DNA of 64,000 bases from Thermoplasmata archaeon (GTDB lineage Archaea > Thermoplasmatota > Thermoplasmata > Lutacidiplasmatales > UBA184), in the NCBI GenBank assembly GCA_035507575.1, contig DATJNY010000019.1, positions 17,681-81,680 on the forward strand, in the 5' to 3' direction. This document shows positions 27,089 through 46,804 of this stretch, one piece after another (positions within the stretch are counted from its first letter, which is position 1; each line of letters opens with the position of its first letter). A program made the translations under genes and the position numbers. The notes beneath the pieces were generated by a model. That model searched no databases. It was not told where the DNA came from and saw only the letters and a list, made by a program, of their open reading frames with translations.

Positions 27089-27759
27089 GCGCGCGTTTAG
27101 GAAGAGCATAGAGCCACTTATCAACCATGAGTACCCGCCACATGCACCGTGCCAAAAAACCTGTGTTATGACCCGCGTCTATCGACAGCCGGACCGGCCG
27201 CTTCCGGCAGGAACCGTCATTTTCGCGGAGGGGTCCGCAAGTCCTGTCCTAATCATGAACCACCGTCGAAGGAGGTCTCGCAGCTAGGTCCCCTCTTGGA
27301 CCGGTTTCAATCGATGCTGGGCTAAGAGTGGAGTCGGTTCGGAAGTTCGATCCGGCACACTCGTGCGTATGCTTGTTCGGCGGTACGGGTACCATCGCGC
27401 GAAGGTCGTAGGCACGCGTCTTGAAGATCCCAGTCCCGACGCGTCAGCCCCTCACTTTCAGAGCGGTGAGGGCCATTCCGATTCGCCGCTCACTCTGGTA
27501 GTTGCTCCCCGCGTCCGGGGGCGGCGAGCAACTGGGCAGATGTGACCTGGTCTCGGCCGGAAACGGTAAGCACGAGGGCCTCTCCACGAACCGCCTCGAC
27601 TCTCGGCTCTGTCCCCGCGGAGTGATGAACCACGGACTTTGACACGGCGGACTCGATAGCACCTTGTGCGCTGTACTGCGCGCCGAGGAACAGCCAGACC
27701 GTGGGACCAGGAATCAAACATGGGCTGAATCTCACGAGATCGGCCCGTCGGGGCTGGAC

Positions 27760-27779
27760 GGGAGGAGTGCTCCCGGCGG
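27760..27779. repeat. Direct repeat (att-like), the proximal copy overlapping the tRNA 3' end
   Basis: Identical 20-mer to 21696..21715. Confidence 0.8.
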
Positions 27780-27867
27780 GATTCGAACCCACGTTGGAGG
27801 GTTTCCCCGGCCCCGTTCGGGGGGCCACGAAGGCCCTCTATCCTTGACCGGACTAGACTACGGGAGC
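27768..27867 (-). tRNA. tRNA gene with a predicted 25-nt intron in the anticodon loop; identity uncertain (hand fold suggests anticodon UUC, Glu); CCA not encoded
   Basis: Acceptor stem GCUCCCG/CGGGAGC, U8-A9, D-arm AGUCCGGUCAA loop and T-arm GUGGG-UUCGAAU-CCCGC are all recognisable. A 100-nt span instead of about 75 implies an intron. A BHB-like fold (CCUU/GGGG helix flanked by 3-nt bulges) gives a spliced loop of CCUUCGA. Confidence 0.8.
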
Positions 27868-31654: not shown

Positions 31655-33154
31655 TTAGACGACCTGGTAGAGTCCGACCTCAGCCGTCGCCGACGCCAAC
31701 GCCGCGTTGTTCGCCGGGTCCGTCACGAAGGTGATGAACTCTTGCGCGACGCCGGTGAGGGGCTCCAAGGAGATCAGCTCGAACGGGCGTCCGCCCACAA
31801 ACTGATCCACAGTCTCGCTGGCCGTTAGGCCGGCAGAGATGGTGCCCGAGGTTCCGGTCGTCGGTACCACACCACCGTAGACAAAGCTCGAACTAGGCGT
31901 CGTAACCGGCAAGCCTGCTCCAGAGATGTTCTGTCCCAATCCTAGGAATGGCACGATTCCGATGTTCGCCGTCGTCCGAGCGAGCCCATCCGAGGCGTAG
32001 CCAATGGCGTTGGCGCTCGCAGCGACGTCGGACAGGACTCCGGGATTACCGTTTCCCTGCTGGCCAGTCGGGTAGCTGAACCCACAGTCTGAGAGGAGGT
32101 TGTTGCTCCCGCATCCGCCGTACCCAAGGTTGGAGAATCCCGTGCCAGTCTGGGTCGTCGCAAAGCTGGATGACGACGAGGATGGGCCGCTTCCGTACCC
32201 GAGGACCTTGGCCTCGAACGTCTGTGTGGTTCCGCTTGCGTCAGAGCGCTCGATCGGAACAATCGGGGCAAGTGGTCCAGCGCCCGCCGTCGGAGTCATG
32301 ACGTACGGACCCGCGCAGATTGTCCACCCGCACGGACTAGCGTCCGTCAACGGTGTCACAATGTCGTTCGCCGCTTGTCCAGTGCCGCCCACACTATCAG
32401 CGCCCATCGCTCCAGCGGTGGTGGCACCAACGCCCGTCGGCTCTTCGGTTACCTCTACCCCGCCGTTAGACACGATTGTGTTGTTTACCCCGGCCGGAAT
32501 CTGGTCCCACAGCAGTGGCGTCCCAATCGTCGCCGTCACACCAAGCGTCGCAAAGTGCTCTCCGTTGAAGGTCCCGAGCTGGTGAATCGTTGGCGAGCTC
32601 GAACTGCCAGCTTCATAGATCGCATTCAGAGTGTCTGCACTCATGCTTCGGATGCCGTGGGAGTTCCCGCTCTGGATGACCACATCGACTGCGTCGTAGG
32701 CGACCGTCGTAATTGTAATGGTCGACGCATACTGCGAAGCGCATCCATAGCTGGACTCCAGTGTGGCGACAGTCTGCGGCGTGGAAGAAGCGCCGAGGTT
32801 GATGTTCCCCTCGCAGAGAGCGATCATCCCCGCGCCAGTTCCGCCTTGGTTGTCGCTCACGACGACATCCGAATTGTTCTGCTCGAACCAGCTTACCGCT
32901 AGCGAGCTGAACGGATACACGGACGTGCTCCCGCCGATGGTCAGCGTCGGCTCCGCGTGTTGCGTGCCGATGCCTCCCGTGATGTTCCCTTGCCAAACGA
33001 CGAGCCAGAGATAGAGCGCCGCCGCCGCCGCGACCGCGATCAGGATCAGGATCAGCGTCGCCACGACCGGCGACACCGCCCGAGCCCGATTCTGGCCGCG
33101 CCACGCGCGTCGGAACCGCTGGCCGCGTTCGACTCTCTTCGTTTTCGCGCTCAT
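31655..33154 (-). CDS. PstS-like (phosphate-binding-protein fold) extracellular protein with an archaeal class III (prepilin-like) signal peptide
   Basis: The N-terminus ...RGQNRARA|VSPVVATLILILIAVAAAAALYLW matches the archaeal type IV pilin-like signal consensus (RG/RA then S-P-V-I-A-T-hydrophobic). PstS-like motifs follow (LTIGGSTSVYPF, NQGGTGAG). The C-terminal half is Ser/Thr/Gly-rich with N-glycosylation sequons. Confidence 0.7.
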   Translation of the reverse strand: MSAKTKRVERGQRFRRAWRGQNRARAVSPVVATLILILIAVAAAAALYLWLVVWQGNITGGIGTQHAEPTLTIGGSTSVYPFSSLAVSWFEQNNSDVVVSDNQGGTGAGMIALCEGNINLGASSTPQTVATLESSYGCASQYASTITITTVAYDAVDVVIQSGNSHGIRSMSADTLNAIYEAGSSSSPTIHQLGTFNGEHFATLGVTATIGTPLLWDQIPAGVNNTIVSNGGVEVTEEPTGVGATTAGAMGADSVGGTGQAANDIVTPLTDASPCGWTICAGPYVMTPTAGAGPLAPIVPIERSDASGTTQTFEAKVLGYGSGPSSSSSSFATTQTGTGFSNLGYGGCGSNNLLSDCGFSYPTGQQGNGNPGVLSDVAASANAIGYASDGLARTTANIGIVPFLGLGQNISGAGLPVTTPSSSFVYGGVVPTTGTSGTISAGLTASETVDQFVGGRPFELISLEPLTGVAQEFITFVTDPANNAALASATAEVGLYQVV

Positions 33155-33394
33155 TTCTCTTCGTTTCCCCTCTTTGTTTTCTTGCAGTTGCTGTCTCGCT
33201 GCCGCGGGACCCTCCCTGCACGCATCGAACCGGGGAGTGGGTTGATAGCCGCCCTCGAAGGAGAAGTCGTAGGAAGTCGAACCCTCCGGCTAACTCCGTA
33301 CGAGCGTGGTCCGTCGTGTCGTGAATGGTCACCTTCGAAGAATACGGAAACTCCGGGCGGCCCGTTCATCGCGCGACCTCGTCTTCCCGATTGG

Positions 33395-35176
33395 ATGCCG
33401 AGTCCCAGCGGGGAGTCCGTCGTCGTTCCCGGCCTGAGAGAGCAACTCCCCCTCCCCCTACGGAAGGGGATCCCGGCGGGTGCGAAGCCCAAGGATCGGG
33501 AGACGCTGCTTCGGGAAGGGAAGGATCTCGAGCGCGTACTCGTCCGTCGCGTGGCGGTTCCCGAGAAGGTTTTGATCCAGGCCGAGCTCGGCTACATGCG
33601 CCGCCAGCTCCAGGGAGATCGGCGGAAGGTCGACATCACCTACGGCGTGAACCCCCCGTTCGCGTTCGTTCACATTTCCTTCAATGCGCCGACCGGTGAG
33701 TTCGACTACGATGTCCTCGAGCCGAAGCTGACGGACTCGGAACGATCCCTCGGTTCGGAGATCCGGGCGAAGATGGAGACGATCATGGGGCAGGAGGAGA
33801 TCCCCATCACCGAGGGGGTGGCCCTCGGGGAGTCGCAAGAGCTCAAGGACTACCTCCAAGAAAAGTTCCTGACGGTGCTGGATCTCTACAATATCGACGT
33901 CGCCCCGAAGCGCCAGCCGGTGATGCTGTACTACCTCTTCCGGGAGTTTCTCGGATTCGGGCAGACCGACCCGATCCTCCGCGACCCCTTCCTCGAGGAC
34001 ATCAGCTGCCTCGGGCCGCGCGTCTACATGTACGTGTTCCACCGCGTGTTCGGCTCCCTGCGGACCAACGTGCTCTACTCGAGCGAGATGGAGCTCAACA
34101 AGTACGTTTTCCGGCTCGCGCAGATCGCCGGGAAGCACATCTCCGTCTACCAGCCGATCCTGGACGCCACCCTCCAGGACGGGAGCCGGATCAATCTCAC
34201 GCTCGGGACCGAAGTCACCCGGAAGGGCTCGACGTTCAGCATCCGAAAATTCTCGGCCGATCCGGTATCCCCCATCGACCTGCTGCAGTTCGGCTCGGTG
34301 TCTCCGCACGTGCTCGCCTATTTCTGGAGCCTGATCGAGCACCACCGGTCGATTCTCATCTCGGGCGGAACGGCGGCCGGGAAGACGACGTTCCTCAACG
34401 CGATCTCGATGTTCATCCGACCCGAGGACAAGATCGTCTCGATCGAGGACACACCCGAGATCCAGATCGACCACGAGAACTGGATCCAGTCCGTGGCACG
34501 AACCGGCTACGGCGCCGCTTCGGGAGTGTCGTCGGGGGCATCGGGAGTCTCGGGCCTCTCGTCAACGGCGGGCAAGACGGCCGGGAGCGTGACCCTCTTC
34601 GACTTGCTGGTGGCGGCGCTCCGCCAGAGACCAGAGTACGTGATTGTCGGGGAGGTGCGGGGCGTGGAGGCGTTCACGCTGTTCCAGGCGATTTCGGTCG
34701 GGCACGCCTCGATGTCCACGATTCACGCCGGATCCATCGCGGAGCTCGTCCACCGCGTGGAGAATGAGCCGATGAACATTCCGCGGGTGCTGTTTCAGGC
34801 GCTCGATGCGGTCGCCTTTCCGACGCAGGTCGTCGTGGGACGCAACCGGGTGCGTAGGGTCGTCGGCGTTACCGAGATTCTCGGGGTGGATCCATCCACC
34901 AACGAGCTCCTCACGAACGACGTCTTCCACTGGAGTCCCAGCACCGACTCCTTCCAATTCCTCGGCCGGAGCTTCGTCCTCGAAGAGGTAGGAGAGCGGA
35001 CTGGGAAGAGCATCGACGCCCTGACGGCGGAACTCCAACGCAAGGCGACGTATCTCGATCTGATGACCCGCCTTGGGCTCACGTACTTCCGAGACGTGAG
35101 CCGGGCGATCGGGTCGTATTACGTGGCGCCCGACGACGCGATCCGCGAATTGGAGCGACGGATCACCGCCCGCTGA
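33395..35176 (+). CDS. FlaI/TadA/VirB11-family secretion ATPase (type IV pilus assembly ATPase)
   Basis: Walker A ISGGTAAGKTTFLNAI, Asp/Walker B box IVSIEDTPEIQ and His box GHASMSTIHAGS are present. I prefer the ATG at 33395. A Gly/Ser-rich insertion sits at 34497..34590. Confidence 0.85.
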   Translation: MPSPSGESVVVPGLREQLPLPLRKGIPAGAKPKDRETLLREGKDLERVLVRRVAVPEKVLIQAELGYMRRQLQGDRRKVDITYGVNPPFAFVHISFNAPTGEFDYDVLEPKLTDSERSLGSEIRAKMETIMGQEEIPITEGVALGESQELKDYLQEKFLTVLDLYNIDVAPKRQPVMLYYLFREFLGFGQTDPILRDPFLEDISCLGPRVYMYVFHRVFGSLRTNVLYSSEMELNKYVFRLAQIAGKHISVYQPILDATLQDGSRINLTLGTEVTRKGSTFSIRKFSADPVSPIDLLQFGSVSPHVLAYFWSLIEHHRSILISGGTAAGKTTFLNAISMFIRPEDKIVSIEDTPEIQIDHENWIQSVARTGYGAASGVSSGASGVSGLSSTAGKTAGSVTLFDLLVAALRQRPEYVIVGEVRGVEAFTLFQAISVGHASMSTIHAGSIAELVHRVENEPMNIPRVLFQALDAVAFPTQVVVGRNRVRRVVGVTEILGVDPSTNELLTNDVFHWSPSTDSFQFLGRSFVLEEVGERTGKSIDALTAELQRKATYLDLMTRLGLTYFRDVSRAIGSYYVAPDDAIRELERRITAR

Positions 35177-35179
35177 GCC

Positions 35180-36130
35180 ATGTTCGAGCCAGCGCCCACC
35201 CCGACGCAGAGGACGCGCTCCCCCGGGACGTCGGCGGGGAAGAAGAGGGTCGGTTCGATCGCGGAGAGCTACCGTAGTTTCGCGTACGGCCTGTTTGGGG
35301 AACGGTTCGACCGAGGCGAGGGGGACCCACTTCTCTCCGAGAGGCTGAAGCGGGCGGGCTACGACGTGAGCCCGGGGATGTTTCGCGGGGTCACCATCCT
35401 GACGGCGATCATCGCGGTCGCGGTCACCTTGCCGTTCACGTTGATCCTGTTCCTGCTTCTGATCCACGTCGGGTTTTGGTACGGCTACGTGGTCCTGGTC
35501 CTCGCCGTGACCGTAGGGGCCGTGTTTCTCGGGTTCAGCTCCCTCGTCAGCACACGGATCGCCAACCGAAAGGACCAGCTCGACCGCGAGTTGCCCTTCA
35601 CCTTGAGCGAGCTCTCGGTGCTCGCCAGCACGGGCACGTCTCCCGTTCAGCTCGTCCGCAGGATGGCGGACCGCGATCACGACCTGGCGATGACCGGCGA
35701 GTTCAAGCGCGTCGTCTACAAGATCGATCTCGAGGGCAAGGATCTGATTTCGGCGCTCGCCGAGACCGGTAAGGCCTCCGCGTCGAGCTCGGTCCGGGAA
35801 GCGTTCTGGGATCTCGCGAACATGATCCACCAGGGCGGCAGCCTGGACGAGTACCTTCGGACGAAGGCCGACGACGTGCTGAAGCTAAAGCGGATGATTC
35901 AGAAGCAATTCATCGAGCGTCTCTCGACATTCCTCGACATGTACGTCTCGCTCGTGCTCGTCGGCGTACTGATGATCGCCGTGGGGGCGTTCTTGATCAA
36001 CGCCCTCGGCCAGACCGTGGCGGGGCTCGACGCGAACGAGCTGTTGCTCGTGCTCACGTTCGGGCTCGTTCCGCTCGCGGTCGTCATGACCGTGATCATG
36101 ATCTCGATCGCGTACGCGAGGGCCGAGTGA
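35180..36130 (+). CDS. T2SSF-domain membrane protein (TadB / FlaJ-half-like)
   Basis: The start is 4 nt after the ATPase stop. A cytoplasmic N-terminal domain is followed by 3 TM segments and a conserved cytoplasmic helical region, which is the T2SSF architecture. Confidence 0.75.
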   Translation: MFEPAPTPTQRTRSPGTSAGKKRVGSIAESYRSFAYGLFGERFDRGEGDPLLSERLKRAGYDVSPGMFRGVTILTAIIAVAVTLPFTLILFLLLIHVGFWYGYVVLVLAVTVGAVFLGFSSLVSTRIANRKDQLDRELPFTLSELSVLASTGTSPVQLVRRMADRDHDLAMTGEFKRVVYKIDLEGKDLISALAETGKASASSSVREAFWDLANMIHQGGSLDEYLRTKADDVLKLKRMIQKQFIERLSTFLDMYVSLVLVGVLMIAVGAFLINALGQTVAGLDANELLLVLTFGLVPLAVVMTVIMISIAYARAE

Positions 36131-36134
36131 CCCG

Positions 36135-37544
36135 ATGCGAAGCGCGCTGCTTCTCGCGATCGTGCTGGTCCTCGCCCTCGCACCCCTCTCCGCGGCGCTC
36201 GCTCCGGGTGCGGCCGGACAGCCCAGCCCGATCGGCGTGATCGATGTATCGCCGGCCCCCGGGAGCGTCACTCCGTCGACCACTCCTACGCTCTACGTGA
36301 CCTACTCCGATTCCGGCGGCGACATCAACTATGCCGCGGTATACATCAATCAGATCAATTTCACGGGATTCACCGGGTACGAGTTCACCTCGACCAGCGT
36401 CACGTGTCCCGTCCCTTCGATCCTCGCGCTCAAGCCCGGACTCCAAAATGCGAGCCTGGTCCTCGGCGATGGCTCGGGAAACTCGCTCAACTACACCTGG
36501 AATTTCACGGTGAACCCGAATGCTTCCATCTCGGGTCAGCCGATCTTCTCGATCAGTGCCGGGAAGCTTCTCCTCTACATCGGCATCGCGACCGCGGTCG
36601 CCGGCGCGACGTTCTTCGCGTACATCGCCTACCTGAAACAGACCACCCGATTTGCGTTTCGAAAGTACTTCGCCACGCACCCGATCCAACGGTCGTATCT
36701 CGTCCTCTACATCCCGTGCGCCGCCGCCTTTCTCTTCCTCCTCGTCGGCCTCTCGTACGTCACGGGGACCCCCAATCTTCCCGCGTACTCCCTCGATCTC
36801 GTCTTCATCGGTGCAATATTCATTGCGCTCACCGCGTTTGGCATCGACGCGCGCACTCAGTTGGCGCGCAACCGGGCGTACGAGCGGGCGTTCGCGCAAT
36901 TCCTATTCGAAATGTCCGACGCGATGCGGGGAGGGCTCGACCCCGCGAAAGCGATCACCGAACTCGCGAAGACCCAGACGAACATCCTTCAACGCCCCCT
37001 TCGCGTCGCCTCGGATGGCATCCGGATCGGCCGCCCGTTCGAAGCCGTCCTACGCGACATGGCGCGCGGCCTGAAGAGCCCCCTGATTTCTCGGTACGCC
37101 GACCTGATCGCCGAGGCGACGACGGTCGGCGGGGAGACCGCGGTCGTCATCCATCGGGCCGCCAAGGACATGGATGATTTTGTGAAGATCGAAGAGGAGC
37201 GATCCGCCCAGCTCACTCTTCCCGTCGCGGTCATTTACATTGCGTTCGCAGTGCTCGTGGCGGTCTTGGTCGCTCTGCTTTACATCGCGCCGGATCTCGG
37301 CACGCTCAACATCGGTTTCCTCACGTCGGCAGCCAATCCCTTGAAAGGCCCTACCGCGAGCTCGGTGCCAACCCTCGCCCTGAGCACACTCCATGAGCGC
37401 TTTTTCGAGCTTACCATCATCAACTCTCTTGGCACCGGTGCGATTATCGGAGCGTTTACCGAGGGTCGCGCCCGCTATGGAATCGTGCACTCACTAGGGC
37501 TGGTCGCGGCGACCACGGTGTTGTTTCTCTTCATCTTCCCCTGA
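36135..37544 (+). CDS. T2SSF-domain membrane protein (TadC / FlaJ-half-like) with N-terminal signal peptide and an extracellular beta-rich domain
   Basis: Signal peptide (MRSALLLAIVLVLALAPLSAALA), an extracellular domain of about 140 aa with N-X-T sequons, then a TM plus cytoplasmic helical T2SSF-like region plus two further TM segments. Confidence 0.7.
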   Translation: MRSALLLAIVLVLALAPLSAALAPGAAGQPSPIGVIDVSPAPGSVTPSTTPTLYVTYSDSGGDINYAAVYINQINFTGFTGYEFTSTSVTCPVPSILALKPGLQNASLVLGDGSGNSLNYTWNFTVNPNASISGQPIFSISAGKLLLYIGIATAVAGATFFAYIAYLKQTTRFAFRKYFATHPIQRSYLVLYIPCAAAFLFLLVGLSYVTGTPNLPAYSLDLVFIGAIFIALTAFGIDARTQLARNRAYERAFAQFLFEMSDAMRGGLDPAKAITELAKTQTNILQRPLRVASDGIRIGRPFEAVLRDMARGLKSPLISRYADLIAEATTVGGETAVVIHRAAKDMDDFVKIEEERSAQLTLPVAVIYIAFAVLVAVLVALLYIAPDLGTLNIGFLTSAANPLKGPTASSVPTLALSTLHERFFELTIINSLGTGAIIGAFTEGRARYGIVHSLGLVAATTVLFLFIFP

Positions 37545-37583
37545 CAAGGGGGGCTGAAGCTTCATCCGGGACGAGCCCGCAGA

Positions 37584-38411
37584 CTACGATGGAGCCATGT
37601 ACTGAATCGTTGCGGAACCGAGGAGTCCGTCGCTGCTTGTGACGACGAGTTGGATATTGTAGGTGTCCCCAGCGGTAAGGGTGCTAGTCAGTTCCGCTTC
37701 CTCCCCGTAGAGCGTAGCGATGACGGAGGAGCCCTGCGTCACCGTCCACGCCCAAGACACGATCGTCGCATTCCCTCCTGGCTGAAATGAGTCCGAACCG
37801 TCGAGGAGCGGGATTTGCTCCGGCTCGCCCCCGGAGTAGGTCGTCAGCACCGACACGAGCGCCACGGCGGTGGGTGGCAGGAATGATTGCTCGAACTGGT
37901 TTCCGAGGAAGGTGGAGATCGCGATCGTCGCGTAGCTGGTGGGAACCGGGGCTTGGTCGGGATTCACGAACGAGTAGGTGGGGCCAGAAGTCAGGATCAA
38001 CGAGATTGTCGCCTCTTCGTCGGGTGTCAAAATGAGCTGAGATCCCGCCGTCACGAGATACATGCTATGGTTGACGAGGTCGGTGACTTGATAGTACACG
38101 AGAGGGAAGCCGTTGATCGTAAGGTCGGTCACAGCGATCGAGTTCACGTCCGAACTCGCGATCGAGAACTCGAAGGTCGCGAATCCGGTTCCCGCTGTAT
38201 CGAGCGAGGATGCAATCCCGACAACGCGGATTGATTCGAGCTGGACGAGGTGAATGTGGGCCTGCTCGGCGTTGTATTGCTGCTCGTACGACGCGACGAA
38301 CGCGGCGAGGGTGACCGCGGCGGCGATGACGATGAGAATGAGCATCAGTGTCCCGACGATCTCGGCAAGACCCCGGGAGCCGCGTGTGAGTGAGGGCGAC
38401 CGGCGCCGCAC
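37584..38411 (-). CDS. Archaeal type IV pilin-like protein (class III signal peptide)
   Basis: N-terminus MRRRSPSLTRGSRG|LAEIVGTLMLILIVIAAAVTLAAFV (prepilin-type: basic leader, G at -1, hydrophobic core with GTLML). This is followed by a Ser/Thr-rich beta domain with N-X-S/T sequons. The apparent start is GTG 38411. Confidence 0.7.
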   Translation of the reverse strand: MRRRSPSLTRGSRGLAEIVGTLMLILIVIAAAVTLAAFVASYEQQYNAEQAHIHLVQLESIRVVGIASSLDTAGTGFATFEFSIASSDVNSIAVTDLTINGFPLVYYQVTDLVNHSMYLVTAGSQLILTPDEEATISLILTSGPTYSFVNPDQAPVPTSYATIAISTFLGNQFEQSFLPPTAVALVSVLTTYSGGEPEQIPLLDGSDSFQPGGNATIVSWAWTVTQGSSVIATLYGEEAELTSTLTAGDTYNIQLVVTSSDGLLGSATIQYMAPS

Positions 38412-38439
38412 GCCCGCGGGAGCCGGAAGGTCGCTGATA

Positions 38440-38464
38440 GGAGTTCCTTACGAAAATTGCGTAA
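38440..38464. promoter_or_regulatory. Intergenic palindrome TTACG-AAAATTG-CGTAA with an AT-rich core, between the pilin gene and the flaH-like gene
   Basis: Perfect 5-bp inverted arms with a 7-nt AT-rich spacer at 38448..38464. It lies about 30-50 bp from the pilin start on the minus strand and about 65 bp upstream of ATG 38529. Confidence 0.35.
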
Positions 38465-38528
38465 TCGACCGAAGTTCTTCGCACACTCCCAATGGCATCG
38501 TTAAGCGAATACCTCCGTAACGAGTACC

Positions 38529-39158
38529 ATGGGTATTCCGGTCGAGGTTCCGGGCCTCGACACGATCGTTCCTGTGATTCCGGACGGTCACATCGTGGTA
38601 ATCGAGAGCGGGGCGGACGGCGTCAAGAGCTTCCTCTCCCGACGACTCGCGAAGACGGCCCTGCGCGCTGGCCGTTCGGTAACTTTCATCGCGTCCCGGG
38701 ACGGGCCGGAACTTTCCCAATCGCTTCTGATCGGCAACGACCTGCCACCCACGCGGGGGGACGGGTTGCGTGTTGAGGAACGGGACTCGCTGGTCGGTTG
38801 GCAAGACGTCGACTCGCTGCGCGGGGTTCTCGTCGTCGATTCGTTCTCATTCCTTGCGCTGAATCTGCCGCCAAGCCAGCTCTCCGAGCTCCTGCGCCGA
38901 CTGCGGCGGTTGGGCCACGCCCAGGGGCTCACGGTGATCCTTGCCACCGACCGCGGGATGGCGGACGAGAGGTCGGAATCGATCCTCGGACACCTCTCCG
39001 ATGGCTGGATTCAATTCCTTTCGAAGGAAGGGCCCGAGGGCCTGATTCGCTATCTACGCGTACCGAAATGGTCGGACGGAACACTCGTCGACCGCAACAT
39101 CTACTACGAGTATGACGGTAAGCGCCTTGCCATTGACCTTCGGCGCCGAGTGTTGTAA
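38529..39158 (+). CDS. FlaH/ArlH-like KaiC/RecA-superfamily ATPase-fold protein (degenerate Walker A)
   Basis: 209 aa with a RecA-like core: IVVIESGADGVKSFLS (Walker A-like, with Lys-Ser retained) and a hydrophobic strand plus D (VLVVDSFS) as the Walker B position. Size and pattern are those of archaeal FlaH. Confidence 0.6.
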   Translation: MGIPVEVPGLDTIVPVIPDGHIVVIESGADGVKSFLSRRLAKTALRAGRSVTFIASRDGPELSQSLLIGNDLPPTRGDGLRVEERDSLVGWQDVDSLRGVLVVDSFSFLALNLPPSQLSELLRRLRRLGHAQGLTVILATDRGMADERSESILGHLSDGWIQFLSKEGPEGLIRYLRVPKWSDGTLVDRNIYYEYDGKRLAIDLRRRVL

Positions 39159-39170
39159 GGAGGCTCGCTC

Positions 39171-40289
39171 ATGCCCGGATCTTCCTACGATCGATTCGGT
39201 CTCACGAGCAATCCCTTCCGGGACCTCGCCAGCGAGAGCTTGGAGGATGTGGAGATCTACCACGTCAATCTCGACATCGACCGAACCCTCGATACGATCC
39301 GAGAGGAGATCTACGCGAAGGAAAATCGCGCGCTGATCGCGCTCGTGGGCCTGCACGGAGCCGGCAAGACGGAACGGCTCCTGATGGCTCAGGAAGAGGC
39401 GAGGGATCGAGGAGCCTTCAGCGTCTACTTCGACATCACCACCAAGACCACGTGGGTAACACGAGGGCTGGCCGCGTCGTTCCGCAAGTCGGCGAATCTC
39501 GGTGGATTCGCCCAGATCTTCAGCGCCCCGCGGTGGTACCGGGACATCGCTGCCCTCGAGCGGATGAAGGACCGAAACTACGATCCGTTGAAAGCCGGCC
39601 GCGCTCTCGCCGAGGCCCTGAACGCGCACGCGCCCGCGTTTCTACTGCTGAACGACCTGCACAACCTCGCCGCGTCGGATGAACTGGGAATCTTCGCGAA
39701 GGTCCTCCAAGAGATGGTCGACAAAATCAAGCCGGGGGTTCTCGTCATGTTCGGGTGCTTTCCGAGCTTCATGCTGCAACTCGCTACGCATCAGGCTCCC
39801 CTGTCGAGCCGGATCAACCGAACCCTAATTCTCCCCCGCCTGACCCCGGAGGAAGCTTCGTTGCTGCTGGCGAAGAAACTATTGGCCAAACGACTGGTCG
39901 AAGGACTGGATCCGCTCTACCCATTCGATCAAGAGTCCGTGTCGCGACTGAACCAATACGCGTACGGCAACCCCCGAAGGCTGCTCGAGCTCGCGGACGT
40001 TTGCATCGAATTCGCGGTAGCCCACCGCTCCTACCGCATCGACACGGAGATCGTGCGCAGTGCGCTCCTCGAACGTCAAGTCCAGGACCTGAAGTCGGAG
40101 GTCGAGGCGCGATCGGACGGGTGGAAGGAGGACCCCCCGGCGGGAGGGATCGAGCCCCTACCCAACGACACCGTTTACATTGAAGGGAGGGCGCCCGCCG
40201 GAGCAACGATCCCCACAGCGATCACCCCGACCGCTCAGCGCAGTTCCGACCGGACTACTAGTGGTGGGCCGGGGCCGGCTCCCCCATGA
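39171..40289 (+). CDS. AAA+ ATPase, ExeA/GspA-like
   Basis: The N-terminal FGLTSNPF motif is typical of ExeA-like ATPases. Walker A is LVGLHGAGKTERL and Walker B is LLLNDLHNL. The C-terminus is Pro-rich. Confidence 0.6.
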   Translation: MPGSSYDRFGLTSNPFRDLASESLEDVEIYHVNLDIDRTLDTIREEIYAKENRALIALVGLHGAGKTERLLMAQEEARDRGAFSVYFDITTKTTWVTRGLAASFRKSANLGGFAQIFSAPRWYRDIAALERMKDRNYDPLKAGRALAEALNAHAPAFLLLNDLHNLAASDELGIFAKVLQEMVDKIKPGVLVMFGCFPSFMLQLATHQAPLSSRINRTLILPRLTPEEASLLLAKKLLAKRLVEGLDPLYPFDQESVSRLNQYAYGNPRRLLELADVCIEFAVAHRSYRIDTEIVRSALLERQVQDLKSEVEARSDGWKEDPPAGGIEPLPNDTVYIEGRAPAGATIPTAITPTAQRSSDRTTSGGPGPAPP

Positions 40290-41289
40290 CGGCCAGATTG
40301 ATCGCCTGTTCGGCGATGTCGGCGGCGTAGCTCGCGATCCGTCCCAGGCTATCGACCACGACTCCGAGCGCGAGGAGCTCCTCGCCCTTGCGCGTCGCGA
40401 CGCGGTGGAACAGATCGTCGATGAGTCGCTGATGTTGCGGTCGTGCGTCGATCGCTGCGTTCGCCTCCTCGATGTCCCCGGCCATCAAGGCGTGGAAGGC
40501 CCGATCCAGCATCGCGATGGCCGAGGTCTTGGCGATCACAAGGTCCGCTGCGAGCTTCGGTTCGAGCGGTTTCTTGTCGGAGAGCGTGGCGTAGGCCCCC
40601 GCGATGCGGACTGCGTGGTAGCCGATCCGCTCCATGATCTTCGCGACGAGCCCATGGACGAGGATGGCTCCCATCCCCTGTCCGTTGGGGCCTGATGGGA
40701 ACTGGCCCGGGGTGAGGTATCTCTTCGCGACCATCCAGTAGAGGCGGTCGACATCCTGGCTGCGTTGCGTTACGTCATGAGCCAAAGTCGGGTTCCGGCT
40801 CTGCAACGCGAGGATCGAATCCTCGAGCATGGCGCGGGTGATGAGATGCATTCGGCGCAAGCACTTCTCCGCGCTCAGTTCCGACGGGTCGGAGAGGTCT
40901 TGGATGATGAGCTGGTTCCGGTTCTCCTCGATCACCTCAGGGCCGATCACGAGCCGGCAAAAGTCGCGTGCAGATCGCCGGACGAAGGGGCCGCGGTCAG
41001 CCGGAAAACGCACCTCGATGAGACCGTATCCTGAGATGTACGCCCCGATCAGTTTCCGCAGAAGGTGTTCTCGTGCCTCCTCACCCTTCTCCTCGAAGAC
41101 CTTCCGGCGGAGCGGGGGGCGCTCCTCGCGCTTATGGCGCACGGATACGGAGCCGTCAAGCTCGGAATCCACGAACAGCGTGTCACCGGCCTTCAGCCCG
41201 GCATCCAGCACCCAGCGCTTGGGCAAGGAAACGAGATACGTTGAGCCGCCGGCCAGCTGAAGCTTACGGCCCTCCATGCGCAGCACCAT
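40258..41289 (-). CDS. Phosphate-uptake regulator: N-terminal AbrB/SpoVT-type DNA-binding domain fused to tandem PhoU domains
   Basis: N-terminus MEGRKLQLAGGSTYLVSLPKRWV (AbrB swapped-hairpin-like). This is followed by two PhoU-like helical repeats (DxxxD motifs; ...MLEDSILAL..., ...ADIAEQAINLA). Confidence 0.75.
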   Translation of the reverse strand: MVLRMEGRKLQLAGGSTYLVSLPKRWVLDAGLKAGDTLFVDSELDGSVSVRHKREERPPLRRKVFEEKGEEAREHLLRKLIGAYISGYGLIEVRFPADRGPFVRRSARDFCRLVIGPEVIEENRNQLIIQDLSDPSELSAEKCLRRMHLITRAMLEDSILALQSRNPTLAHDVTQRSQDVDRLYWMVAKRYLTPGQFPSGPNGQGMGAILVHGLVAKIMERIGYHAVRIAGAYATLSDKKPLEPKLAADLVIAKTSAIAMLDRAFHALMAGDIEEANAAIDARPQHQRLIDDLFHRVATRKGEELLALGVVVDSLGRIASYAADIAEQAINLAVMGEPAPAHH

Positions 41290-41454: not shown

Positions 41455-42015
41455 ATGCCTGAGGTACCGGCCGAGGGGCTTCGGTTCGAGGAAGTCGATC
41501 CCTCGTCCGCCGACCTCCCCCCCGTCGAGCACCGGCCACCTTCGACCGACGGACGCCGGCCCGGGGTTTATCTGATCGTTATCGTGCTGGTGATCGCGGT
41601 CGCGGTCGGTTCGGTGTATCTCGTGTCGATCACGTTCCACCGTGGGGCGGCGTCCTCCACGACGCATGTGCTCGTGCCGAACGGAACCGCCTACTCGATC
41701 CCGGCCGGCCAGTACGACGCCGTCGCCTTCATCGTCGACGGGAATGCGACGGTGAAGGGGACGATGTACACGGCGTTCGGAATGACGCTTTATCAGATGA
41801 CCCCCGCCCAGTACGAGCATCTCGTCAATACCCTGAATTTCTCGGCCGGCTACGAATGGACCTCCGGACCGATCGGTAACAACACCGTCTATCAACTGAA
41901 TCTCACCGTCCCCGCCGGGCAGTGGGAGTTGGTCTGGGCGAATCCGAACGATCCGTCCACCTTCATCACCACGCTGATCGGGTTCTACTCCGATTTGATC
42001 CTCGAGCCCTCGTGA
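41455..42015 (+). CDS. Hypothetical membrane-anchored extracellular protein (186 aa)
   Basis: N-terminal TM (VYLIVIVLVIAVAVGSVYLV) plus a beta-rich ectodomain with N-X-T sequons. It sits between two PhoU-type genes. Confidence 0.5.
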   Translation: MPEVPAEGLRFEEVDPSSADLPPVEHRPPSTDGRRPGVYLIVIVLVIAVAVGSVYLVSITFHRGAASSTTHVLVPNGTAYSIPAGQYDAVAFIVDGNATVKGTMYTAFGMTLYQMTPAQYEHLVNTLNFSAGYEWTSGPIGNNTVYQLNLTVPAGQWELVWANPNDPSTFITTLIGFYSDLILEPS

Positions 42016-42049: not shown

Positions 42050-42781
42050 CTACCGTTTCGGGCTGGGCGACCAGACGCCCGAGGTCGCCCGATGGGCGAG
42101 GGCTGGGAAATACTCAGGTCGGCGCTCGCCGGTGATCGCATAGATGGCCTTCTCGGCGATCTTGCAGGCGTTGTCCCCGACCCGCTCCAGGTGGCGGCCG
42201 GCCAGAAGAAAGCGGCCGAGACGTTCGGTGGAGGGTCCGCCCTTTTGCAAAAGCTCGAAGACCCGGTTCTGCAGTTGGTCGTACAGCTCATCGACATCGT
42301 CGTCCATGGCGAAGATGGCCCGCGCTTCATCGGCGTCCTCTTTGAGGAACGCCCGCACGGATCGCTGGACCATCAGGCGGGACTGCTCGTCCATCTTTCG
42401 CAACAGCTCGCTGGGGGTTTGGTCGGAGGTGTCGGGCGAGCTCGTCAGGTTCTTCGCGAGGTCGTAGCCGAGCCGCCCGACGCGGTCGACGCAGTTCGCG
42501 ATCTTGAGCACGGCGCCGATCGTCCGGAGATCCGGCCCTTCAGGCTGGAGGATCGCGATCAGGCGGATCGCCTCGGTCTCGATGGCGATGTCGAAGCGGT
42601 CGAGGGGCGAATCGCGGTCGGTCACGCTCTTCGCGAGGGCCGCGTCGCCGGTGATCAGCGCCCGGGTCCCGTCGGCGACCATGCCGACGGCGAGTTCGCT
42701 CATCGCGCCGACATGGGCTTTCAGGACCACGATCGGGTCGTCGGGGGGGTTCGGTTTCGGAGGTTCGGGGGTCGCGTTCAT
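42050..42781 (-). CDS. phoU: PhoU-family phosphate transport system regulator
   Basis: Start at ATG 42781 (MNATPEPP...), overlapping the pstB stop. Two PhoU repeats with conserved D/E residues are present (ETEAIRLIA..., DDVDELYDQL..., ERVGDNACKIAE). Confidence 0.8.
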   Translation of the reverse strand: MNATPEPPKPNPPDDPIVVLKAHVGAMSELAVGMVADGTRALITGDAALAKSVTDRDSPLDRFDIAIETEAIRLIAILQPEGPDLRTIGAVLKIANCVDRVGRLGYDLAKNLTSSPDTSDQTPSELLRKMDEQSRLMVQRSVRAFLKEDADEARAIFAMDDDVDELYDQLQNRVFELLQKGGPSTERLGRFLLAGRHLERVGDNACKIAEKAIYAITGERRPEYFPALAHRATSGVWSPSPKR

Positions 42782-43551
42782 GAGAACCGTCCAGTGATGA
42801 ACTCCGCCGTGAGCGGGTTCCGGGGCCGCTCGAGGACCTCGGCGGTCGGCCCGACCTCGATGAGGTGGCCGGTGTGGAGAACGGCGATGCGGTCGGAGAC
42901 CCGCGCCGCCTGGCTGACGTTGTGCGTGACGAGGACGAGCACGTAGTCCTCCTTGAGCCGTTGCATCGTCGCCTCGACGCGCTGCGTCGCCGCGGGATCG
43001 AGCGCCGACGTCGGCTCGTCCAGCAGCAGGACCCGGGGCTGGGTCGCGAGCGCGCGGGCGATGCACAGGCGCTGCTGTTGTCCTCCCGAGAGCGAGAGCG
43101 CGGGACGGTCCAGGTCATCCTTGACCTCGTCCCACAGGCCGGAGCGGCGGAGCCCCTCCTCGACCTGCCGCTCGATCTCACGGATCTCCTCGCCGACCAG
43201 GCGGAGGCCAAACGCCGCGTTCTCGAAGATCGACGTCGGGAAGACGGTCGGGCGCTGGAAGACCATCCCGATGCGGCGCCGGACCATCACCGGGTTGACG
43301 CGAGGATCGTAGATGTTCTGGCCGAGGTAGAGGATCGCCCCCTCCACCTTCAGACCGGGCGTGAGTTCCACCATGCGGTTCAGGCTGCGCACGAACGTGG
43401 TCTTCCCGCAGCCGGACGGGCCGACGACCGCGGTGAGGCTCGACGGCCCAAAGTCGAGGGAGAGGTCGTCGATGAGCTTCTTCTGCTTCGTGCGCACGGT
43501 CAGGTGCTGCACCGACACGACGGCGCTCCCGTCGTTCGCGGTCGCGTTCAC
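42778..43551 (-). CDS. pstB: Phosphate ABC transporter ATP-binding protein
   Basis: Start at GTG 43551. Walker A GPSGCGKTT, signature LSGGQQQRL, Walker [12 protein letters not shown] and H-loop VTHN are present. The 828-aa containing ORF is an artefact. Confidence 0.9.
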   Translation of the reverse strand: MNATANDGSAVVSVQHLTVRTKQKKLIDDLSLDFGPSSLTAVVGPSGCGKTTFVRSLNRMVELTPGLKVEGAILYLGQNIYDPRVNPVMVRRRIGMVFQRPTVFPTSIFENAAFGLRLVGEEIREIERQVEEGLRRSGLWDEVKDDLDRPALSLSGGQQQRLCIARALATQPRVLLLDEPTSALDPAATQRVEATMQRLKEDYVLVLVTHNVSQAARVSDRIAVLHTGHLIEVGPTAEVLERPRNPLTAEFITGRFS

Positions 43552-44462
43552 TGGTAGAGTCCCTCCAATCGCTTCTGGTATCGGGCCGAGATGACGCGCA
43601 CGAGGATGTTGAGGGCGACGACGACGACCATCAAGAGGAGCGCGGCCTGGAACGCGAGCGAGAGGCTCGGCGATCCCGCGGGCTGGGAGAAGTTCTCCCA
43701 GATCGTCCCGGTCAGGAACGTGACCGGGGAATAGATCGTGGGCGGGAAGATCACCGACTGGGTCGTCGTGAGGACGATCGGGGCCGTTTCGCCGACACCG
43801 ATGGCGAGCGCGAGGAAGACCCCGTTCAGGATCTGGGGGAAGGCGATCGGCGCGCCGACCCGGAGCACGTATTGGTACGGCCGGGCCCCCGAGCCGTAGG
43901 CGGCCTCCCGGATCGGGCGGGGGATCGACGAATAGGCGAGATCGGAGATCCGGAAGATGTAGGGGGTCATGAAGAACGCCAGCGTGACCGACCCCGCGAT
44001 GAACGAAAGCCCCCAGCCGAACGTGATGACGAAGAGGAAGTAGCCGAAGTACCCAAGGACGACCGACGGCGTTCCGACGAGCATGTTCGCCGCCATCCGG
44101 ACCCAGCCGGCGGCCCGCTCGGGCAGGAACTCGGCGGTCGCGACCCCGCCGAAGAGGCCGAGCAGCACCGCGAGGGCGATCGCGAACAGCATGATCGCGG
44201 CGGTCGTCTCGATCGGAACACCGAGCGCGTCCGGGTCGTAGGGGTTCGTGCTCGTGAGCACGGTCCAGGTGAACGTCGGAAGCGCCTGCGACGCGATGTA
44301 GTAGACGAGGTCGAGGATCGGGATGATCGCGACAAGGAAGAGCAGCGGCAGCACCCAGCCGATGGCCTTGTCGAAGCCGAGTCGCCAGCGCGTGCGGAAC
44401 GACCGGTCGAAGAGCAGCTCCTCGGCGGTCTCGGCCCGGAGGTGGTTCACCGCGCTCGCCAT
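43548..44462 (-). CDS. pstA: Phosphate ABC transporter permease
   Basis: 6 TM, with the EAA-like loop region (EAAYGSGARPYQ). The 4-nt start/stop overlap with pstB indicates operon coupling. Confidence 0.85.
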   Translation of the reverse strand: MASAVNHLRAETAEELLFDRSFRTRWRLGFDKAIGWVLPLLFLVAIIPILDLVYYIASQALPTFTWTVLTSTNPYDPDALGVPIETTAAIMLFAIALAVLLGLFGGVATAEFLPERAAGWVRMAANMLVGTPSVVLGYFGYFLFVITFGWGLSFIAGSVTLAFFMTPYIFRISDLAYSSIPRPIREAAYGSGARPYQYVLRVGAPIAFPQILNGVFLALAIGVGETAPIVLTTTQSVIFPPTIYSPVTFLTGTIWENFSQPAGSPSLSLAFQAALLLMVVVVALNILVRVISARYQKRLEGLYQ

Positions 44463-44468
44463 CGACCC

Positions 44469-45413
44469 TCACAACCCCGGGACTTCGTAGGTGACGATGC
44501 GGGCGACGAGCCGGCGGCCGATGATGTTGACCGCGAGCGAGATCGCGAGGAGCACGAGCGCCATCTCCGACAGCGCGGCGAGCCACTGGGTGTTGCCGAA
44601 GGCAGAGTCCAGCGAGAGGAACATCTCCGCGGCCATCGTGCCGGTCGATCCGTAGACGTTGGTGGGGTACGAGGCGACGACGTTCAGCACCATCGCGATC
44701 GCAACGGTCTCCCCGAACGCCCGGCCGAAACCGAGAAAGGCGGCGCTGAGGATCCCGCGGCTCCCATACGGGATCGCCACGTGGCGGACCGTCTCCCAGC
44801 GGGTCGCCCCGAGGCCGAGGCCGGCTTCCCAGAGGTCCCGGGGGACGCTCCGGAGCGCGTCCCGGATCAGGAGGGTCGTGATCGGGAGCGCCATCAGCGT
44901 GAGGATGAAGACCCCGACGGGCAGGCCGAGCCCATCCGCGCGGGGCGCGAGCCCACCGAACCCCGGGATGAACCCGATGTGGGCGTACAACGCGGGATTG
45001 ATCACGCTCCCGAAGAACGGGGCGACGAGCAGGTACCCCCAGATCCCGTAGACGATGCTCGGGATCCCGGCGAGGAGGTCGACGAACGGGTCGAGCCACC
45101 GGGTGATCCATCCCGGCAGGTACGTGGTCGAAGCGATCGCGATGCCGAGACCGATCGCCATGGCGAAGAAGAGCGCCGGGAGGGCGGTCAGGAACGATCC
45201 GGCGATGAACACCGCGATCCCCCACTGCGAGGGCGGATCCCAGATGCTCCCCCAAAAGCCCCAACCGAAATTCGTGAGCTTGCTCGAGATGAGCAGCTCG
45301 ACGACGATCCCCACGAGGATCGCCATCGGGATGAGCGCCGGGACGAACGGGACGATCCGTCCGATCGTCGCGCCGTAGGCCCGGTGTCGCGGAGCGGTCG
45401 GGGTTGCGTTCAT
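44469..45413 (-). CDS. pstC: Phosphate ABC transporter permease
   Basis: 6 TM, with the EAA loop (EAGLGLGATRWETVRHV). Confidence 0.85.
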   Translation of the reverse strand: MNATPTAPRHRAYGATIGRIVPFVPALIPMAILVGIVVELLISSKLTNFGWGFWGSIWDPPSQWGIAVFIAGSFLTALPALFFAMAIGLGIAIASTTYLPGWITRWLDPFVDLLAGIPSIVYGIWGYLLVAPFFGSVINPALYAHIGFIPGFGGLAPRADGLGLPVGVFILTLMALPITTLLIRDALRSVPRDLWEAGLGLGATRWETVRHVAIPYGSRGILSAAFLGFGRAFGETVAIAMVLNVVASYPTNVYGSTGTMAAEMFLSLDSAFGNTQWLAALSEMALVLLAISLAVNIIGRRLVARIVTYEVPGL

Positions 45414-45505: not shown

Positions 45506-46804
45506 TCAGCTGATGCCCGAGACGCTCGCCAGCTCCACATTGTCGTAACCGATGACCTCGGGGGTCAGGGGCACGAAGTTGACCCCATTGATCCACGCCG
45601 AGGCCGACCCCGCGGAGTTGTAGTTCCCGTACGTCAGGGCCCAGTGCATGAACGCGACCGTGGCCGCGAGCGCGGCGGCCGTCACGACCGTGCCACCGGG
45701 CAGGGTCTTGATCAGCGCGTACTCGAGGTTGACGATCGGGTAGGCGTCCACGCCCGCCGCGGCGTTCGAGCCGCCGCCACCGTGCACGAGGGTGACCGCG
45801 CCCGCGTAGCTGCCGCCGAGGATCAGGCTGACCGCGAGTCCGTAGGTCGCGAAGTCGAGGCGGGTCAGACCCAGGTTCGCGTCGTTCGAGATCGTGGTGG
45901 TCGTGGGCAGGATGTAGTCGTCCGCCGCCGCTGCGTAGGTCCCGTTCGCGATCGTCGCGTTGTTCCCGACGGCCGCATACTCGAGTCCGGCCGCCGCGGC
46001 GCTCGCTTCGTAGCTGATCCCAATGTACGCGATCGAGCCGACCTGGCCCTGCGCGGTCGAGACCATGCCCGAGTTACCGGTGCCGGTCAGGACGTTCGTG
46101 CCGGTGAAGCCCGATAGGCCGCTCGTCGAAACCGGGTACGGGAACGCCGCATCGGACATGTAGCAAAGCGACGTGAACAGGAACGTATCCCCGCTCGAGT
46201 CGGATCGCTTGACCGGGTAGATCGTCTGGGCCGACATCGCGCTGAGCTCGCCCGCGACCGTCGACGACTGAGCCGCCAGGATCTCCGGGTTGTTCCACGT
46301 TGTGATCGATCCGCTGTAGATCCCCGCGAGGATCGAGCCGTTCAGGTTCAGGTGCACGGCGTTGAGCGGCGCCGGCAGGTTGTAGTAGATCAACTGCGCG
46401 GAGATCGCGACGGGGAAGTTGATCAGGTTCGTGGTGCTCGCGTTCGTCAGGTAGCCGTCCGAGGCCCCGATATTGACGAGACCCAGTTCGGCGCTGCTTT
46501 GGCCCGTACCACTGCCCGTGGACGCCGCGCTAAGGACGACGCCCGAGGCCGTGTAGTTCGGGAACCAGTAGTTCTTGAAGAGCGGGTAGAGCAGGCTCGA
46601 GCCCGTCTCCGTCAAGTTGATCGTGCTCGAGCTCGTGCTCGAGTTCGTGGACTTCCCGAGGAAGTATCCCCCGGCGATGCCCACGATCAAGAGGACGATC
46701 GCGATCGCGACCGCAACGCCCACCGACATGCCGCCGGAGCGGCGCTTCATGGGCGTCGAGAGTTGTTCGGTCTGTGTCGTTCCACCCGTGTTCTGCGCAC
46801 TCAT
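45506..46804 (-). CDS. pstS: Phosphate ABC transporter substrate-binding protein, N-terminal membrane anchor
   Basis: TM anchor (VGVAVAIAIVLLIVGIAGGYFL) and PstS motifs (TGSSLLYPL, ASTGSGTGQ, GASDGYL). It is first in the pstSCAB-phoU operon. Confidence 0.85.
   Translation of the reverse strand: MSAQNTGGTTQTEQLSTPMKRRSGGMSVGVAVAIAIVLLIVGIAGGYFLGKSTNSSTSSSTINLTETGSSLLYPLFKNYWFPNYTASGVVLSAASTGSGTGQSSAELGLVNIGASDGYLTNASTTNLINFPVAISAQLIYYNLPAPLNAVHLNLNGSILAGIYSGSITTWNNPEILAAQSSTVAGELSAMSAQTIYPVKRSDSSGDTFLFTSLCYMSDAAFPYPVSTSGLSGFTGTNVLTGTGNSGMVSTAQGQVGSIAYIGISYEASAAAAGLEYAAVGNNATIANGTYAAAADDYILPTTTTISNDANLGLTRLDFATYGLAVSLILGGSYAGAVTLVHGGGGSNAAAGVDAYPIVNLEYALIKTLPGGTVVTAAALAATVAFMHWALTYGNYNSAGSASAWINGVNFVPLTPEVIGYDNVELASVSGIS

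Follow-up and report, generated by a model that had tools for sequence, protein, structure and literature searches.

In a genome of a Thermoplasmata archaeon assigned to the Lutacidiplasmatales, a PstS-like phosphate-binding protein that carries the N-terminus of an archaeal type IV pilin is encoded back to back with a type IV pilus assembly module, and an AbrB-PhoU gene and then a canonical phoU-pstBACS operon lie beyond the module. The locus is part of a 64,000-nucleotide stretch of DNA (GenBank assembly GCA_035507575.1, contig DATJNY010000019.1, positions 17,681 to 81,680), the whole of which is referred to as the window; its G+C content ranges from 57 to 75%, and its nearest database relatives are soil metagenome-assembled genomes (MAGs) named "Thermoplasmata archaeon." We consider that these genes probably compose a phosphate "bindosome," in which pilus machinery would display a protein that binds phosphate and supplies the Pst transporter. 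Dozens of related genomes share this arrangement, and its recurrence suggests that archaea have a way of harvesting phosphate that has not yet been described. A sequence-only reading of the window, made without database searches, had put forward a candidate phosphate bindosome at this place; the proposal is supported by the present analysis, in which none of the three findings that it had named as contrary turned up, and Pfam and NCBIfam scans recovered every gene on which it was built at the coordinates it had given.

The PstS-like protein and its pilin-type N-terminus

The gene at 31655..33154(-) encodes a 499-residue protein composed of a basic 26-residue leader ending in NRARA|VSP, a pilin-like helix at residues ~27-58, and a two-lobed phosphate-binding fold. 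The archaellin/type IV pilin N-terminal domain model TIGR02537 matches residues 25-51 with 29.1 bits (cutoff 20), and the residues around the expected cleavage position are well kept, with Lys or Arg at position -2 in 112 of 121 homologs and Ala or Gly at position -1 in 118 of them, a combination that we take as a predicted PibD-type site. In addition, a search with the family profile picks up the core of a known structure, the Iho670 adhesion filament of Ignicoccus (3j1r, E 1.8e-5; 5kyh, E 9.2e-5). These matches bear out, at the sequence level, the claim of the sequence-only reading that a PstS-fold substrate-binding protein carries a class III prepilin-type signal. A plain Sec signal-anchor, which would have spoken against the claim, was not what we found, given the TIGR02537 score and the near invariance of the helix described below.

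Residues 27-56, VSPVVATLILILIAVAAAAALYLWLVxWQG, are almost unchanged in the alignment of 27 homologs that were collected by homology and are only ~50% identical overall. Over 45 genomic loci the same segment shows 96% identity as protein and 83% (minimum 70%) as DNA, a figure to be read with the reservation that the loci were fished with N-terminal peptide patterns over residues 27-45, which inflates the apparent invariance there; residues 46-56 and the 27-homolog set are less affected by this retrieval bias. Each position of the segment is encoded by two to five synonymous codons, except for the single-codon Trp positions and Ser28. The high protein identity at much lower DNA identity, together with the synonymous codon turnover, means that the constraint on residues 27-56 is on the peptide. 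As controls, the membrane anchors of canonical PstS proteins vary freely among the same genomes, and the other binding proteins of the window, including a peptide-binding protein, carry ordinary, plain anchors. More than 300 homologs of the PstS-like protein exist, mostly of 450-530 residues, and because of the pilin-type N-terminus their JGI names are often "flagellin-like protein."

The remainder of the protein has the fold of a phosphate-binding protein. It scores 42.5 bits with PBP_like_2 (cutoff 27) and E 1.4e-18 with the PstS family model TIGR02136, while the full-length NCBIfam PstS models stay under their cutoffs because of insertions, which are variable and rich in Gly, Ser, and Thr; six Cys residues are invariant. 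The family profile also matches PstS structures in the PDB, including 4GD5 and 4Q8R. In an AlphaFold2 model, residues 29-58 form a helix and a domain of two lobes comes after it. When this model was compared with the PDB by Foldseek, phosphate-binding proteins took all of the top 47 places, at target-normalised TM-scores that reached 0.76. The PstS-fold identity assumed in the sequence-only reading is thus confirmed.

The pocket motifs G75-S-T-S78, T/S106, S124, D154, R303-S-D-A-S-G-T-T310, and R456-P-F are conserved in nearly all of the 121 homologs (96-100%). Position 124, a Ser here, is presumably the equivalent of Asp56 of Escherichia coli PstS, an assignment that combines the hidden Markov model (HMM) alignment to 4GD5 with the E. 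coli sequence. The protein can therefore be classed, as far as its residues tell, as an S-type PstS in which Ser replaces the key Asp. The PstS of the operon itself has Asp at that position, which makes it a D-type protein. The pocket residues were assigned with the help of the HMM alignment to 4GD5 and of a published description (PMC13614923), according to which S-type PstS proteins such as Clostridium perfringens PBP-1, 1TWY, and SphX use an Asp-Arg-Thr/Ser triad for phosphate, have lower affinity, and discriminate less strongly against arsenate. Two paralogs with a PstS-like domain, P0300 and P0303, have a decayed pocket (e.g., GGATAAYPE, with R303 and R456 gone) and possess a plain anchor and long Ig-like repeats in place of the pilin N-terminus.

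The pilus module and its recurrence beside phosphate genes

The first gene of the module (33395..35176, +) encodes a type IV pilus assembly ATPase of 593 residues that matches T2SSE (PF00437) with 111.8 bits, and its start at 33395 coincides with an ATG conserved in an alignment of 25 loci. The "FlaI-like" label of the sequence-only reading holds with respect to the T2SSE family but not to the nearest relative, since the closest sequence in the PDB is Archaeoglobus GspE (2OAP, 392 bits), followed by FlaI (278 bits), with CpaF as a further relative. The ATPase is 66-82% identical across loci in tblastn searches; among its top 120 protein matches the identity is 68-88%, and many of its homologs are annotated with PilB3_N and PilB3_C domains. 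The platform is split between two adjacent genes, both over the T2SSF cutoff: a T2SSF/TadC-like protein of 316 residues (35180..36130, +; 47 bits) and a second half of 469 residues (36135..37544, +; 51 bits), which carries a signal peptide and, outside the cell, an N-terminal domain of ~140 residues and whose counterpart in Thaumarchaeota bears a Big_1 Ig-like domain.

A conventional archaeal pilin of 275 residues (37584..38411, -) comes next. Its leader, SRG|LAEIVGTLMLILIV, and its long N-terminal helix are conserved, and it has two domains of the beta-sandwich type, the second of them PKD-like. Its AlphaFold2 model (predicted local distance difference test score, pLDDT, 89) contains a helix at residues 12-58 (47 residues) and the two beta-sandwich domains. 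In Foldseek, the model reaches target-normalised TM-scores of 0.63-0.65 against two structures, archaellin 9eq7 and 8fk7, the type IV pilus of Pyrobaculum, and a lower score, 0.52, against the Aap pilin. The sequence-only reading had assigned it the same signal type as the PstS-like protein, which agrees with the conserved leader and the modelled helix, although TIGR02537 reaches only 19.4 bits, slightly below the cutoff of 20. Direct reading of the two sequences gives 11 identical positions of 29 between the helices of the pilin and the PstS-like protein, which is consistent with co-assembly of the two, and the pilin is a candidate structural or partner pilin. The database calls P0241-P0248 for this pilin are 252-266 residues long, cover 91-92% of the query, and are ~20 residues short; P0241 (253 residues, 92% of the query), for instance, aligns from an internal Met at residue 23 of the window pilin. 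By such shortened calls, which lack the leader, automated annotation hides the class III signal. One pilin homolog is labelled "FlaF" by JGI.

Two further proteins complete the module and are syntenic in nearly all loci. The KaiC/FlaH-like protein (38529..39158, +; 209 residues) scores 29.4 bits with the KaiC model of Pfam (cutoff 26.6), has a degenerate Walker A motif, GADGVKS, and belongs with DUF7125, a domain recorded for its homologs both at loci reached from the ATPase and at those of distant relatives; its match to ArlH (E 2.8e-7) is far under the ArlH cutoff. The P-loop nucleoside triphosphatase (NTPase) at 39171..40289(+), of 372 residues, matches AAA_22 weakly (22.3 bits, cutoff 27), contains the Walker A motif GLHGAGKT, and is 50-72% identical across loci. 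Its N-terminal "FGL..NPF" motif is reminiscent of ExeA/GspA. A sequence search of the PDB with these two proteins returned nothing significant. The genes that had been named "FlaH-like" and "ExeA-like" are thus in place, but the names were firmer than the low-scoring matches allow. A PP2C-type phosphatase gene stands beside the module at two other loci (L056, 112-747; L059, 887-1480), which hints at phospho-regulation of the KaiC-like component.

On the far side of the module, an AbrB/MazE-fold DNA-binding domain is fused to PhoU domains in a protein of 343 residues (40258..41289, -), which is a candidate phosphate-responsive regulator. It is followed by a membrane-anchored protein of 186 residues (41455..42015, +), which matches no family and recurs beside the module in ~16 related loci. 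The operon, in the order phoU-pstB-pstA-pstC-pstS as read by coordinate on the minus strand (42050-46804), consists of phoU (42050..42781, -; TIGR02135, 135 bits, cutoff 130; start codon taken from the translation), pstB for the ATP-binding subunit (42778..43557, -, start approximate; TIGR00972, 329 bits), the permease genes pstA (43548..44462, -; 153 bits) and pstC (44469..45413, -; 224 bits, cutoff 196), and the gene for the canonical D-type PstS of 432 residues with the motif "IGASDGY" (45506..46804, -; TIGR00975, 151 bits). The PhoU-AbrB regulator and the canonical pst operon described in the sequence-only reading are accordingly borne out by MazE/AbrB, PhoU, PstB, PstA, PstC, and PstS matches.

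The 240 bp between the PstS-like gene and the ATPase gene (33155..33394) were examined by the 25-locus alignment and by k-mer counts. One conserved block (~33241-33275), upstream of the PstS-like gene, contains the TATA-like element CTATCAAC and CTACG[GA]CTTCTC..TTCGAGG, and another (~33332-33370) contains repeats of the ACGGAG..CCGTA type and a TATA-like element ~27 nucleotides before the ATPase ATG. A TATA-like element is therefore suitably spaced from each of the two divergent starts, with CTACGG/CCGTAG-type repeats just upstream of each, and the blocks are candidate operator and promoter elements to judge from their conservation and position; the repeats are confined to this intergenic region and show no enrichment in other parts of the window. 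A structured RNA was considered for this region and rejected, as Rfam matched nothing there and only one tRNA in the whole window.

The linkage of these genes across genomes is a further support of the bindosome reading. Among the 34 Thermoplasmata loci that have sufficient upstream sequence to be evaluated, a divergent ATPase gene lies within 1.5 kb of the PstS-like gene in 31, AbrB-PhoU is in the available flanking sequence of 29, and pst or phoU genes are in that of 17. The pst genes are placed either past AbrB-PhoU, as in the window, or right after the PstS-like gene and in its orientation (L003, L004, L013, L014, L019, and L023). In the reverse direction, three ATPase homologs picked solely by the size of their contigs all led to a locus with a divergent PBP_like_2 gene and the full module, and hence the ATPase set was not met with in loci devoid of a binding protein, as it might have been if the sequence-only reading were wrong. 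A profile search of 1.84 billion representatives yielded 260 clusters at E<=1e-10, among which many shorter proteins (308-420 residues) keep the class III N-terminus and the S-type motifs, and all five contexts fetched for distant class III PstS relatives carry the same module. Two MAGs of Thaumarchaeota extend the arrangement: in L049 a class III PstS-like gene is followed by those of the ATPase, TadC1, and TadC2, then by a 474-residue Pilin_N protein and a canonical PstS, and in L048 pstA-pstB precede the PstS-like gene and the ATPase gene. The PstS-like homologs therefore co-occur with pilus genes almost always, the opposite of what the sequence-only reading had named as contrary, and the arrangement recurs far beyond chance. 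At L004 and L037, both from MAG AcS1-45, there are two separate copies of the module, which represent either a duplication or two strains binned together.

The connection with transport is tightest at loci L056 and L057, where a fused PstC-PstA permease immediately follows the pilin-type PstS, with no other PstS between them; the fused permeases score 449 and 384 bits with TIGR02138 and 381 and 358 bits with TIGR00974. By gene order, the pilin-type PstS occupies the place of the transporter's own binding protein at both loci. These permeases (L056, 10454-13690; L057, 10321-13545) have an extra N-terminal region of ~440-500 residues. At L058 the pilin-type PstS gene is followed by one gene and then by that of an exopolyphosphatase.

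Other parts of the window have less bearing on the system. Just past the pst operon, a secreted protein of 455 residues without a family match (47847-49214, -) has the N-terminus RPRG|LILGIVVAIGIVVVV, which satisfies a loose FlaFind-like pattern, and it may be a further class III substrate. The region 1-20400 resembles a neighbourhood of amine or polyamine catabolism, with three aldehyde dehydrogenases, two class III aminotransferases, two amine oxidases, a Rieske oxygenase, an amidohydrolase, and an oligopeptide ATP-binding cassette (ABC) system; related genes flank the module in L053 too. At 21696-27779 there is a low-GC island of ~6 kb (57-61% against ~70% around it) whose ends are marked by the two exact copies of a 20-nucleotide direct repeat, GGGAGGAGTGCTCCCGGCGG (21696-21715 and 27760-27779). 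The latter copy extends into one end of a tRNA gene (27768-27867, -) that was detected by Rfam and missed by ARAGORN and that may have an intron. The island looks like an integrated element with att sites; no integrase was seen in it, and its large open reading frames, of 710 residues and of 497 residues (the latter with five internal 43-nucleotide repeats), found no match in PHROGs and Pfam. A HerA/DUF87-like ATPase (55374-57212) within 54836-61920(-) is followed by several membrane or secreted proteins of 254, 379, 129, and 729 residues that match no family, and the cluster may be a DNA-transfer or secretion apparatus.

A proposed phosphate bindosome and its alternatives

From the computed domain identities, the conservation of the cleavage site and the pocket, the purifying selection on the helix, and the linkage across lineages, we infer the cleavage, assembly, ligand, hand-off, and regulation that make up the following scheme. 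The 499-residue protein would be made with its long basic class III leader, which a PibD/FlaK-type prepilin peptidase encoded outside the window would cleave after Arg-Ala. The ATPase and the split TadC-like platform would then extract the invariant hydrophobic helix from the membrane, and the helix, alone or with the Ig/PKD pilin, might pack into a fibre or short stalk that places the S-type PstS domains outside the cell. Compared with classical PstS, the displayed domains should bind less tightly and less selectively, and the phosphate they capture could pass to PstCAB directly or via the membrane-anchored, high-affinity D-type PstS. AbrB-PhoU and PhoU might couple expression to the phosphate status of the cell via the conserved divergent promoter.

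Several points weigh against this scheme, in addition to the retrieval bias that accompanies the helix identities. At L010, L029, and L039 the PstS-like gene has no adjoining pilus module. The leader, at 26 residues, is unusually long and also very basic, and a globular head of ~440 residues on each subunit is possibly hard to pack into a filament. No prepilin peptidase (PibD/FlaK/EppA, A24-type) was found by Pfam scans among the called genes of the 64-kb window; it may be encoded elsewhere in the genome. The AlphaFold2 model of the PstS-like protein is moderate, with a pLDDT of 68.7 that falls below 50 in the region of the SGT loop, and phosphate is not certain to be the ligand, because S-type PstS proteins discriminate poorly against arsenate. 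An operator shared with the pst promoter was also considered and had to be given up, as ACGGAG..CCGTA shows no enrichment in the window, with 38 matches where 31 would be expected.

Of the alternatives, a pilus for adhesion or for the scavenging of minerals survives best, even if we hold it to be unlikely. The PstS-derived head would then serve as an adhesin for phosphate minerals or surfaces, or as a structural part, with no direct feeding of PstCAB. The PilB3-type accessory domains of the ATPase are known from adhesive pili, the Ig and PKD domains of the partner pilin are typical of adhesins, and the paralogs P0300 and P0303 combine a decayed pocket with long Ig-like repeats, all of which would suit such a role. 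A structural head, however, has no need of the residues that enclose a free phosphate ion, which are ~100% conserved, nor would it explain why the gene takes the position of the substrate-binding protein in the pst operons of L056 and L057.

A role in sensing is, in our estimation, improbable. Here the occupancy of PstS would be relayed via the platform, the KaiC-like protein, and the AAA_22 NTPase to AbrB-PhoU, so that the module would exert Pho control rather than bulk uptake. The conservation of two extra cytoplasmic NTPase-like proteins and of the AbrB-PhoU gene in the module is what this explanation would predict, as is the presence of PP2C phosphatases next to it at L056 and L059, and the PstS-PstCAB-PhoU system of bacteria doubles as a sensor. 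Nevertheless, no signalling domain connects the parts, the pilin-type PstS is the only PstS beside the permease at L056 and L057, and KaiC-like proteins accompany many archaeal pili with no sensing role shown (PMC4858521).

Slightly less credit still can be given to the idea that the protein is an ordinary anchored binding protein, whose uncleaved anchor merely resembles a pilin and whose neighbouring pilus is unrelated and just co-regulated. The N-terminal anchors on the other binding proteins of the window, the three loci where the pilus module is not adjacent, and the lack of a peptidase gene among the called genes all fit this idea. A mere anchor, on the other hand, is not expected to stay 96% identical across genomes whose globular domains are ~50% identical; moreover, the linkage persists over deep Thermoplasmatota lineages and Thaumarchaeota, and the helix is homologous to those of the partner pilin and Iho670. 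Finally, a divergent archaellum serving motility is scarcely credible and was rejected, as the sequence-only reading had also done: FlaI, FlaJ, and ArlH are the best NCBIfam matches and JGI annotates homologs as FlaI or "flagellin-like," but these matches are all under cutoff, the ATPase is nearer to Archaeoglobus GspE than to FlaI, Pfam and NCBIfam scans of the called genes found none of FlaF, FlaG, FlaX, FlaCDE, and archaellin (PF01917) in the locus or the window, and the Lutacidiplasmatales genome paper reported the lineage to be without archaellum genes (PMC9287336).

The phosphate bindosome thus remains the reading that we favor, and it can be carried further, though the extended version is doubtful. 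The phosphate-binding pilin might itself be the chief subunit of a fibre that is dynamic and perhaps able to retract, an extracellular "antenna" or "fishing line" of PstS domains that would gather phosphate at a distance from the cell and deliver it along a gradient of affinity to the D-type PstS and PstCAB. Such a fibre could be the standard uptake apparatus of many Thermoplasmatota and some Thaumarchaeota, and in lineages like those of L056 and L057 it would bear the sole binding protein of the transporter.

Acidic soils and sediments, from which many of these genomes originate, are often short of phosphate; several of the MAG sets bear soil in their names, and the AcS set comes from acidic soils. 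If pilus machinery does prove necessary for deploying the phosphate-binding protein, many genes of Thermoplasmatota annotated as "FlaI," "flagellin-like," or "archaellum component" would really belong to nutrient uptake, and the Sulfolobus bindosome would be one case of a broader archaeal strategy, not a curiosity of its lineage. The locus would also offer a compact system, with binding protein, machinery, transporter, and regulator co-localised, for approaching the long-unresolved "bindosome" structure, as well as a natural example of a filament-displayed solute-binding domain.

Comparison with known systems

With the S-type PstS proteins of bacteria (C. perfringens PBP-1/4GD5, Vibrio cholerae 1TWY, and Synechocystis SphX; PMC13614923), the protein of the window has in common the Ser in place of the Asp of the low-barrier hydrogen bond, the GSTS loop, the SGT loop, and the Asp-Arg-Thr/Ser triad. 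The pairing of an S-type with a D-type PstS in one genome is likewise known from SphX and PstS1. The bacterial S-type proteins are, however, soluble or lipid-anchored and 240-300 residues long, and the archaeal protein adds the pilin N-terminus, six conserved Cys residues, and ~150 residues of variable insertions.

The adhesive pili of archaea, such as those assembled by Haloferax PilB3/PilC3, the Iho670 fibres, and Aap, share with this system an ATPase, a platform, and class III pilins made of a helix and an Ig-like head, and the likeness extends to the PilB3-type domain matches and the homology of the helix to Iho670. None of them has been reported to have a solute-binding protein as its head or a fixed link to a transporter operon. 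As a whole, the combination of a split platform, KaiC-like and AAA_22 partners, an Ig/PKD pilin, AbrB-PhoU, and PilB3-type domains fits none of the published descriptions of archaeal type IV filament subsystems with which we compared it.

In bacteria, PstS is said to occur on or in extensions of the cell: Zaborina et al. (2008) reportedly described surface appendages rich in PstS on phosphate-limited Pseudomonas aeruginosa, and Wagner et al. (2006) reportedly described the stalks of Caulobacter as PstS-containing extensions for phosphate uptake. The placement of PstS is alike, whereas these extensions are built by unrelated machinery, and their PstS is not known to carry an N-terminus of the pilin type. 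Searches of the literature available to us found nothing that links PstS to archaeal pilins or describes a phosphate-linked archaeal pilus, in agreement with the statement in the sequence-only reading that it knew of no described version; the Lutacidiplasmatales genome paper (PMC9287336) goes no further on this subject than the lack of archaellum genes.

A preprint of April 2026 by Sivabalasarma and Albers (10.64898/2026.04.22.720090) is close in concept. It predicts 4364 class III binding proteins, euryarchaea included, and proposes type IV filament machineries functionalised by substrate-binding proteins; neither phosphate nor PstS is mentioned in its text. Such proteins are described there as usually co-localised with ABC transporters, not with filament clusters, unlike the present system, in which binding protein, filament cluster, and transporter are all co-localised and co-conserved.

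A further comparison is that with the Bas system of Sulfolobus/Saccharolobus (BasEF and BasABC, with the binding proteins GlcS, AraS, and TreS; PMC3047682), to which the sequence-only reading had likened the locus. Common to both are prepilin-type signals on ABC binding proteins, a T2SSE ATPase, a T2SSF membrane protein, and pilin-like proteins, and to that extent the parallel holds in logic. It fails as orthology, which we rejected because the ATPase and platform matches lie far under cutoff (NF053672 BasE, 165.9 bits, cutoff 1000; NF053673 BasF, 29.9 bits, cutoff 1300). The ligand, which is sugar in Sulfolobus, is predicted to be phosphate here; the binding-protein gene adjoins the machinery here, whereas those of Sulfolobus sit with the transporters, far from basEF; and the KaiC-like, AAA_22, and AbrB-PhoU partners, as well as the phylum, are different. 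On these likenesses and differences, the system encoded in the window seems to be one that works like a bindosome and is not a member of the Sulfolobus Bas system.

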